This document shows, piece after piece, positions 6,835-7,557 of a stretch of DNA of 13,923 nucleotides (the stretch's first letter is position 1; each line of letters opens with the position of its first letter). The position numbers and the translations under genes are program-made. Source of the DNA: a virus. Taxonomy: Duplodnaviria; Heunggongvirae; Uroviricota; Caudoviricetes. The notes below the pieces were generated by a model. That model ran no database searches, was not told the origin of the DNA, and saw nothing but the letters and a program-made list of their open reading frames with translations. The stretch is from positions 1 to 13,923 of IMG/VR virus record IMGVR_UViG_2681813227_000021. One strand, given 5' to 3'.

Positions 6835-7014
6835 ATGCGAAACGAAAAATTGCAGATGCGTAGAGCGCAAGCTGCCGCAAGACGTTCTTTCAATGGAAGC
6901 GTAGAGTACGTAAAAGTTACTATGACAAAAGATCACGCAAGTCGCGTATCCCGAGCTTTCTTTGATTCTCGTAACAATAAGGAAAATTATGAGTTCGTCT
7001 GCGTCGCAGAATGA
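6835..7014 (+). CDS. Small ORF, 59 aa, putative antitoxin/regulator partner of the downstream gene
   Basis: Absent from the supplied track. GAGG SD about 7 nt before ATG 6835. Product MRNEKLQMRRAQAAARRSFNGSVEYVKVTMTKDHASRVSRAFF... is basic with a possible beta-strand then helix (RHH-like). Its 3' end overlaps the start of the next gene by 26 nt in another frame. Confidence 0.3.
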   Translation: MRNEKLQMRRAQAAARRSFNGSVEYVKVTMTKDHASRVSRAFFDSRNNKENYEFVCVAE

Positions 7015-7534
7015 TAAAAATCAAATTGTCAGATATAAGGGTCGAGTATTGCATACGCAAAATTTCTCGGCCCTTTGTGCATCTGATCTTGAGCTGAAGA
7101 AAGTATCTGATGCCTTTACCCAGTATTGGAAAACGGGATACCATCCATCTCTTGGTAAAGATGCTGCATTTGCTCGTCCGACAGAAATGCTTAAACTAAA
7201 TGTCAGGCATACTCATGTCGATAACCAAGACTATATTCCAGAAGATAGTGATAAAAAACACACTGGTAAAAAATCATCTTGGGATGCATGGAAAAATATA
7301 GCGTCTGTGCAAGTAAAATGCATACCAACAAGTGATTGCTTTTTAGTTTATTCGGTAAATCACAATCGTGATGCGCTGGTTATGTTTTTTGTTGACGCAG
7401 ATGCCCACAACATAACTGAGCAAGAAGAGTTTAAAGAGGAAGCAATCACTATCAGTTATCAATTCTTTGAGAAAACAAAAACAGAACCAATGCCTTTAGA
7501 AGAAGAGCTTTTTTCTGATAAATGGAAGGAATAA
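6989..7534 (+). CDS. Putative toxin-like protein, 181 aa, function unknown
   Basis: AAGGA SD (6979-6983) before ATG 6989. Segment NVRHTHVDN...CFLVYSVNHNRDALVMFFVDADAHN resembles, from memory only, the core of YafO-family mRNA-interferase toxins. Followed immediately by a strong terminator. Confidence 0.55.
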   Translation: MSSSASQNDKNQIVRYKGRVLHTQNFSALCASDLELKKVSDAFTQYWKTGYHPSLGKDAAFARPTEMLKLNVRHTHVDNQDYIPEDSDKKHTGKKSSWDAWKNIASVQVKCIPTSDCFLVYSVNHNRDALVMFFVDADAHNITEQEEFKEEAITISYQFFEKTKTEPMPLEEELFSDKWKE

Positions 7535-7557
7535 GCCCGCGTTGCGGGCTTTTTTGT
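7535..7557 (+). terminator. Intrinsic terminator
   Basis: GCCCGC-GTT-GCGGGC followed by TTTTTTGTG, starting right after the TAA at 7532-7534. Confidence 0.75.

Follow-up and report, generated by a model that had tools for sequence, protein, structure and literature searches.

What does a small two-gene cassette lodged between two convergent antirepressor genes do for the prophage that carries it? The cassette lies in IMG/VR virus record IMGVR_UViG_2681813227_000021 (Caudoviricetes), of which positions 1 to 13,923 were analysed (hereafter the window, a single stretch of 13,923 nucleotides), and consists of a gene for a 59-aa basic protein that overlaps the start of a gene for a 181-aa protein related to YafO, a toxin of Escherichia coli K-12. 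A first-pass annotation, made from the letters of the window and its translated reading frames, had described these genes as a toxin-antitoxin-like cassette. We consider it probable that the pair is a type II toxin-antitoxin (TA) operon carried as a moron by a Uetakevirus prophage.

Layout and control region of the cassette

The cassette and the signals that accompany it are listed below by position, strand and description.

6732-6760, plus strand: putative sigma-70 promoter, with -35 TTGCAG (6732-6737), a 17-nt spacer and -10 TACTAT (6755-6760)
6760-6774, no strand assigned: palindrome TTACC-N5-GGTAA, a candidate operator, overlapping the 3' end of the -10 as well as the expected start of transcription
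6835-7014, plus strand: gene for the 59-aa basic protein (phrog_6685), a putative antitoxin and autorepressor; ATG at 6835, Shine-Dalgarno (SD) sequence GAGGT at 6824-6828, 6 nt upstream
6979-6983, plus strand: SD sequence AAGGA of the putative toxin gene, 5 bases 5' of the ATG at 6989 and within the 59-aa reading frame
6989-7014, plus strand: dual-coding overlap of 26 nt, read in different frames and holding the start codon of the putative toxin
6989-7534, plus strand: gene for the 181-aa long-form YafO-family protein (phrog_1651), a putative mRNA endoribonuclease toxin
7533-7551 plus T-run, to 7558, plus strand: intrinsic terminator belonging to the cassette, in which TTTTTTGTG follows a stem of 8 bp (6 of them GC pairs); it overlaps the TAA stop of the putative toxin gene

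The overlap of 26 nt, the good SD sequence and the basic character of the 59-aa open reading frame (ORF), whose product has an isoelectric point (pI) of 10.0, had all been noticed in the first-pass annotation, as had a strong terminator belonging to the cassette itself, and each can be read directly from the sequence. The layout is the generic one of a TA operon: two small co-directional genes with a single promoter and a single terminator, kept in 45 loci. Across the 45 viral contigs both ORFs are retained with their overlap and SD sequences, as are the promoter and the palindrome, while the intervening sequence varies, which argues that these features are more than chance.

The nucleotides of the overlap (6989-7014) are nearly invariant in 7 divergent loci, and its length, 26 nt or 17-20 nt, is retained across all clades. 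Because the putative toxin gene starts 26 nt inside the first cistron, translational coupling of the two genes is implied.

The promoter scores 8/12 against the consensus and is not listed by a scan with a threshold of 9/12. An upstream alignment of 8 divergent loci nonetheless keeps the TTG of the -35, the 17-nt spacing and a -10 of the form TA(A/C)TAT or CAnAAT, while the letters of the spacer vary; the -10 hexamer is TACTAT in the window and TAATAT in most of the aligned loci. In the same alignment the TTACC and GGTAA arms of the palindrome are invariant, its centre and flanks vary without covariation, and the stretch from the palindrome to the SD sequence is variable and contains indels. 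We read the palindrome as a protein operator rather than an RNA hairpin, since its sequence is kept without covariation and the predicted +1 lies within it. A protein bound at this position would block RNA polymerase, and the small protein of the cassette may be the one that binds. An RNA structure or RNA antitoxin was also considered and was rejected on the same grounds, together with the lack of any Rfam match within the cassette. A second inverted repeat in the leader, ACGGATT-N15-AATCCGT (6775-6803), occurs in the lineage of the window only; in the other loci that stretch is variable or deleted.

The 181-aa protein and its 59-aa partner

The 181-aa protein had been tentatively associated in the first-pass annotation with YafO-type ribosome-dependent mRNA interferases, and profile searches agree. 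The protein matches the Pfam family PF13957 (YafO_toxin) over profile positions 3-92 of 101 with 26.3 bits (E 8e-6; gathering score 25 bits), and 32 of the 52 aligned relatives match the same family. A profile of 22 close homologues, searched against 1.84 billion representatives, retrieved only 61 proteins, which form a continuum from about 160-200 aa down to 131-154 aa. The shorter proteins were retrieved at E 1e-4 to 1e-7 and score 40-93 bits against PF13957; the weakest matches to the clade profile are canonical YafO proteins of 131-138 aa, with PF13957 scores of 78-93 bits (P0094, 92.9; P0092, 82.9). The alignment of 52 sequences, which includes K-12 YafO, has three invariant positions (G56, H76 and H140) and six that are nearly invariant (F43, D58, P64, W98, S115 and Y121). 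Residues F43, G56, D58, H74, H76, Y121 and H140 correspond to F25, G39, D41, H60, H62, Y88 and H109 of K-12 YafO. To our knowledge, the catalytic roles of these conserved YafO residues have not been established. NCBIfam holds no model that matches the 181-aa protein. Its product name in RefSeq, assigned by the Prokaryotic Genome Annotation Pipeline (PGAP), is 'type II toxin-antitoxin system YafO family toxin', and the identification is therefore already public at the level of annotation.

At 181 aa the protein is larger than the single compact domain of about 130 aa that makes up YafO. It carries N- and C-terminal extensions and an insertion of about 30 aa, and we therefore assign it to a long-form YafO subfamily. 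Its pI is 5.8, its C-terminal tail has a net charge of -7, and its gene shows strong purifying selection, with a ratio of nonsynonymous to synonymous substitution rates (dN/dS) of about 0.10. Its structural elements are predicted in the order strand, two helices, strands, helix, which would suit a RelE-like BECR fold without proving one. Sequence searches of the Protein Data Bank (PDB) with the single protein and with the 52-sequence profile returned nothing; the copy searched contains no YafO-family structure.

The upstream ORF, to judge from its conservation, is a real gene. Its product, with a net charge of +4.6, matches phrog_6685 over its full length (E 3e-45), and Salmonella, Lelliottia and Hafnia have homologues of it that are full-length and 75-97% identical. 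All 45 IMG/VR loci with a relative of the 181-aa protein have the small ORF upstream; one of them has a truncated toxin gene, and wherever the toxin gene is intact the small ORF is unbroken. Possible cases of a broken small ORF next to an intact toxin gene (P0038 and P0039) were set aside as uninformative: one is at the end of its contig, and the assembly that holds the other contains further fragmented genes. Over the 51 codons outside the overlap dN/dS is 0.29, and selection therefore acts on the amino-acid sequence of the 59-aa protein. Upstream of toxins that are only 36-44% identical the small ORF has diverged, and the overlap of 26 nt (or 17-20 nt) is kept; examples are the small proteins of L045 (MSTVDRIKAARRAKASGYAYNEVKPMSKDSAKEISDYFYNKSKESKRNNEFCCAE) and of L046/L047 (...KVYAPRISEEESKKLSRNMLEAIRASNNEFKLIAE). 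In L045, two tandem small-gene paralogues (1630-1845 and 1889-2056) precede one YafO-like gene, the second copy matching the hidden Markov model (HMM) of the small ORF at E 6e-8. A small gene that is genuine, selected and co-inherited with its neighbour fits what a TA pair requires. In the two RefSeq E. coli loci that we inspected PGAP leaves this gene uncalled, and for that reason the toxin looks like an orphan there.

An AlphaFold2 model of the 59-aa protein (mean predicted local distance difference test score, pLDDT, 70) predicts an Arg-rich helix at residues 2-17, a strand at 24-31, a helix at 32-43 and a strand at 51-58. With this helix-strand-helix-strand order the protein would not be a ribbon-helix-helix (RHH) protein. 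The first-pass annotation had suggested RHH or Phd/YefM families for the partner, and here the searches went the other way: of the recognised antitoxin folds (RHH, helix-turn-helix, AbrB/SpoVT and Phd/YefM), none is matched by the 59-aa protein. A weak hit to Pfam DUF6955 (E 0.04), whose 14.5 bits fall short of the cutoff of 27, was disregarded.

Long YafO-like genes with 22-32% identity to the window toxin were found on Acinetobacter Rep3 plasmids, on a Klebsiella plasmid beside a Bro-N gene, on a Rahnella plasmid and in phage EC.W1-9. Each has an upstream partner gene, unannotated or called 'hypothetical', that encodes a protein of 47-139 aa without a Pfam domain. When the HMM of the small ORF was run against 697 six-frame ORFs, four distant partners took the top four ranks, all aligning at one motif, V.MS.E.A..[IL]SR.[MF]. 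This pattern is suggestive of a shared core, possibly toxin-binding, to which interchangeable N-termini are attached.

Function of the gene pair

If the cassette is a TA operon, it may work as follows. The sigma-70 promoter would give a bicistronic mRNA, from which the 59-aa protein would be made first and, through translational coupling, in excess, and the 181-aa protein would be translated from the second cistron in a manner coupled to the first. By homology, the 181-aa protein would cleave mRNA and halt translation. The 59-aa protein would bind and neutralise it through the conserved strand-helix at residues ~24-45 (V.MTKEHA..VSRAF) and, alone or in a complex, would repress the promoter at TTACC-N5-GGTAA. 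Loss of the labile partner, either with loss of the prophage or when an infecting phage shuts off transcription or translation in the host, would free the toxin, and the freed toxin may stabilise the prophage, abort the infection, or do both.

A more specific form of this proposal is one that we put forward tentatively and with more doubt than belief. The 59-aa protein might found a very small antitoxin family in which exchangeable N-termini are attached to a toxin-binding strand-helix core, V.MTKEHA..VSRAF, and which serves only a long-form YafO clade that moves together with phage antirepressor modules; the pair might then be a prophage abortive-infection or exclusion device whose firing is tied to the antirepressor and immunity region.

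Several results weigh against the identification of the cassette as a TA operon. The PF13957 match of the 181-aa protein is only marginal, and the homology to YafO was shown through profiles because BLASTP against K-12 YafO gave no significant match. An hhalign comparison of the clade profile with the single YafO sequence aligned the right segment with an E-value of 0.006 and a probability of 6%. The AlphaFold2 model of the 181-aa protein, built from a 22-sequence alignment, has a mean pLDDT of 52, and a Foldseek search of the PDB with this low-scoring model returned noise and no match to a RelE-like fold. The 59-aa protein has no family match in Pfam or NCBIfam, where neither an antitoxin nor a DNA-binding domain was found; its alignment shows no similarity to YafN (hhalign, E 0.44), and it is basic where YafN is acidic. 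In the PDB, its profile finds no sequence match and its model no fold neighbour. The individual HMM E-values of the distant partners, 0.25-0.65, are non-significant. Neither cassette protein matches a defence model of PADLOC-DB v2 at E <= 0.1, and our literature search found no experimental paper on this cassette.

The main rival, which we regard as unlikely, is a different division of labour. The 181-aa protein could be a conditional effector, for example an RNase acting against incoming phage or against host transcripts at induction, that is not toxic to its own host at native levels, and the 59-aa protein could be only a transcriptional regulator or an assembly or cofactor partner. A basic protein without an antitoxin signature, with an Arg-rich N-terminal helix suited to nucleic-acid binding and a palindrome at its promoter, would fit such a role; the three additions that distinguish the 181-aa protein from YafO could alter its activity or control, and the cassette lies repeatedly, in unrelated backbones, beside antirepressor genes (Bro-N, ORF6N and Ant). 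However, the conserved overlap, tight coupling and strict co-occurrence of the two genes are typical of antidote pairs, the part of the partner that is conserved is the strand-helix core whereas the basic N-terminus is replaced in distant clades, and all characterised YafO proteins are toxic when expressed alone (PMC2814082). The marginal Pfam match, together with truncated toxin copies (P0022-P0024, P0046 and L043), would also suit a decaying or domesticated relic in which a catalytically dead YafO-like protein is kept for another role. A toxin dN/dS of about 0.10, His, Gly, Asp and Tyr positions in common with K-12 YafO that are invariant or nearly so, and a partner that is always present and intact make this very improbable.

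Two further readings concern the small ORF itself. It could be a translated leader that delivers ribosomes and encodes a functionless peptide, with the toxin an orphan or neutralised otherwise, by a host factor or by an antisense RNA from convergent transcription. The start codon and SD sequence of the toxin gene do lie inside the small ORF, PGAP annotates the toxin only in the RefSeq E. coli loci inspected, and convergent transcription of ant could run antisense into the cassette; yet the dN/dS of 0.29 outside the overlap indicates selection at the amino-acid level, the partners in distant clades share a sequence motif, and Rfam recognises no RNA family within the cassette, so that a leader role seems very improbable to us. 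Least probable of all is a reversal of roles, with the small basic protein as toxin and the acidic 181-aa protein as antidote. The polarity of charge is indeed opposite to that of YafN and YafO (small protein pI 10, large protein pI 5.8 with a C-terminal tail of -7). Against this stand the homology of the large protein to a known toxin family, the absence from the small one of a membrane helix or toxin signature, and a gene order and coupling that favour an excess of the upstream product, as for antitoxins. The leader, relic and reversed-role readings are thus disfavoured by the selection and homology data, and a type II TA operon is the reading that we carry forward.

Prophage setting and relation to known systems

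The cassette is a mobile moron. Its spread over varied phage backbones is the behaviour expected of a self-contained moron or TA module, and with its own terminator it has the self-contained moron layout that the first-pass annotation had described. The window sequence is that of an E. coli UTAK-1 prophage adjoining yfgH/yfgI, to which the cassette region (6689-7669) is a 100% match; the same region is 98.7% identical in phage TL-2011b, whose source is an O103:H25 hemolytic uremic syndrome outbreak strain. By gene content the phage is an epsilon15/phiV10-like podovirus (Uetakevirus). Other backbones include a myovirus-type contig with a tail sheath gene (L046), a contig in which the cassette lies beside an ORF6N gene (L045) and one in which it follows a lysozyme gene (L042). 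Distribution in E. coli is patchy (61 of 5,426 complete genomes). Among GenBank phages the cassette is present in TL-2011b only, with a distant relative in EC.W1-9; distant versions are found on plasmids of Klebsiella, Rahnella, Acinetobacter and Vibrio, and a profile search of contigs from species-representative genomes found no relative. Two cassette-bearing 'plasmids' of 41,027 bp (NZ_CP079771.1 and NZ_CP079768.1) are recorded for duck E. coli HL15 and SF10. The chromosome records of both strains also match, and the 41-kb records are probably the excised circular phage genome.

The surroundings of the cassette in the window are as follows.

3240-5234, minus strand: gene for an SGNH-esterase tailspike
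5770-5846, plus strand: isrK (Rfam, 74 bits), 5' of the BRO-N antirepressor gene
5866-5952, plus strand: C4 antisense RNA (Rfam, 79.5 bits), directly 5' of the BRO-N antirepressor gene
6419-6710, plus strand: left repeat arm, from the BRO-N antirepressor gene (6001-6687, PGAP call): the part coding for its C-terminal domain, and its 3' hairpin
7559-7597, plus strand: 3' remnant of a gene for a 53-aa signal-peptide protein, outside the cassette (alignment with TL-2011b)
7603-7620, minus strand: terminator of the convergent P22-type ant gene (terminator scan)
7647-7939, minus strand: right repeat arm, from the P22_AR_N antirepressor gene (7671-8615): the part coding for its C-terminal domain, and its 3' hairpin
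8617-8684, plus strand: sar RNA (Rfam, 45 bits), at the 5' end of the P22-type ant gene
10073-13087, minus strand: gene for a virion protein of 1004 aa
Lysis genes: annotated in the identical UTAK-1 locus

The inverted repeats that had been noted around the cassette comprise 270-nt arms (6419-6688 and 7670-7939) that are 90% complementary and a second pair of 19 nt (6692-6710 and 7647-7665) that is 100% complementary. These arms arise from homology between two antirepressor genes transcribed towards each other, and consist of the sequence coding for the C-terminal domain of each together with its 3' hairpin. The cassette had also been described as lying between two convergent terminators. Of these, the one on the right (minus strand, 7620-7603) is convincing, whereas the left hairpin at 6695-6710 is followed by a weak T-tail and escaped the terminator scan. 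The isrK, C4 and sar matches all reach the Rfam gathering scores. The prophage therefore has two different antirepressor modules under antisense-RNA control, a P1/P7-like one (c4) and a P22-like one (sar, arc, mnt), and these face each other with the YafO cassette in the middle. The repeat-forming C-terminal domain behaves as a shuffling module: different E. coli prophages have it, upstream of the cassette, joined to a BRO-N, an ORF6N or an Ant N-terminus. In Uetakevirus prophages the cassette always lies after this common domain, whichever of the three N-terminal domains precedes it.

One IMG/VR contig, L005 (IMGVR_UViG_2740892230_000001, 2755-4885), carries the cassette flipped relative to ant/arc/mnt, downstream of the P22-type ant gene and co-directional with it; its repeat arm combines sequence from both window arms as a mosaic, and the other arm forms the end of the contig. 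The flipped junction is present in no complete E. coli genome, whereas the native junction occurs in 50 records. Programmed inversion of the cassette through the repeats was rejected on these grounds, and the L005 arrangement is possibly a rare recombination between the repeats or a misassembly.

The 53-aa gene lost its start and most of its length through a 192-bp deletion in the window relative to TL-2011b and most related prophages; only the last 39 nt are left. An intact copy, named 'transmembrane anchored protein', is annotated in TL-2011b and many E. coli prophages (5939-6100 in L002), and on the Rahnella plasmid the same small gene follows the long-YafO gene of 32% identity. The site of the cassette is a variable region, with the tail spike gene on one side and the virion protein gene on the other. 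The tail spike, T7-tail-fibre-like at its N-terminus, contains a GDSL/SGNH esterase domain (E 7e-15) and may therefore be a receptor-destroying enzyme of the O-antigen deacetylase type. A 203-aa protein (9450-10061, plus strand; phrog_8033) with a hydrophobic N-terminal segment gives a weak match to TIR-like ThsB in PADLOC (E 0.015) and is encoded at what we take to be the position of sieA in P22.

Systems of this kind are familiar, and RefSeq already has a name for the toxin. YafO cleaves mRNA in a translation-dependent manner, is encoded after its antitoxin, and has a toxicity that is rescued by YafN (PMC2814082, PMC11980606); its Pfam family has about a thousand sequences (PMC11980606). In a survey of TA systems in E. 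coli, YafO_toxin hits fall into 6 clusters and their partners into 13, of which 8% are known and 92% unknown, so YafO proteins with an unknown partner have already been catalogued in bulk (PMC10790755). For such partners the cassette offers a concrete and well-conserved case to study. What is new here is the definition of a long-form YafO subfamily, its conserved and unannotated 59-aa basic partner unrelated to YafN, and the promoter/operator footprint. If the cassette is indeed a TA operon, the poorly studied YafO family gains a second, phage-borne subfamily with a different antidote, and the seeming orphan 'YafO family toxin' of the inspected RefSeq E. coli loci would be an artefact of an uncalled 59-aa gene. 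The cassette is likewise a candidate prophage-stabilising or anti-phage module in a type of prophage found in pathogenic E. coli.

The closest characterised relative is the YafN-YafO pair of the K-12 dinB operon, whose toxin belongs to the BECR superfamily of RelE and ParE. Both systems place antitoxin before toxin in one operon, as we propose for the window, and the toxins have a family profile in common as well as the motifs F..(Y/W)...G....GKD/GRD, (R/A)H.H, (S)D..L.Y and AH/PH. However, the window toxin has 181 aa compared with 132 aa for K-12 YafO, with an N-terminus longer by about 18 aa, the insertion of about 30 aa placed after the H.H strand, and an acidic C-terminus of about 18 aa with a conserved PMPL.E.LF..KW. 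Its basic 59-aa partner has no similarity to YafN, an acidic Phd/YefM-type protein of 97 aa. A gap of 2 nt separates yafN from yafO, in place of the 26-nt overlap of the window genes, and the window cassette is phage-borne, whereas yafN-yafO forms part of the SOS-regulated dinB operon.

Phd-Doc of P1 is a type II TA module borne by a prophage or plasmid-prophage. Phd-Doc and the defence toxins of the RelE/ParE superfamily (PMC11980606) are, like the window cassette, small two-gene modules of temperate phages with a possible role in stabilising the element or aborting superinfection; for the window cassette this function, like the autoregulation typical of such modules, is proposed from its sequence. 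Neither Phd nor Doc is homologous to either component of the window cassette.

Close counterparts in form are the pairs of the Klebsiella phage-plasmid p2018C09-155-228k, Rahnella pKM12v1, EC.W1-9 and the Acinetobacter Rep3 plasmids. Their long YafO-like proteins (~160-175 aa) have the same extensions as the window toxin, their partners share a short V.(M/L)S.E.A..(I/L)SR motif with the 59-aa protein, and they are often found beside Bro-N or antirepressor genes, as is the window cassette. They differ in their partners, which have unrelated N-termini and vary in length (47-139 aa), and in the junction of the two genes, which overlap by 11-14 nt in some pairs and are separated by a gap of 66-110 nt in others.

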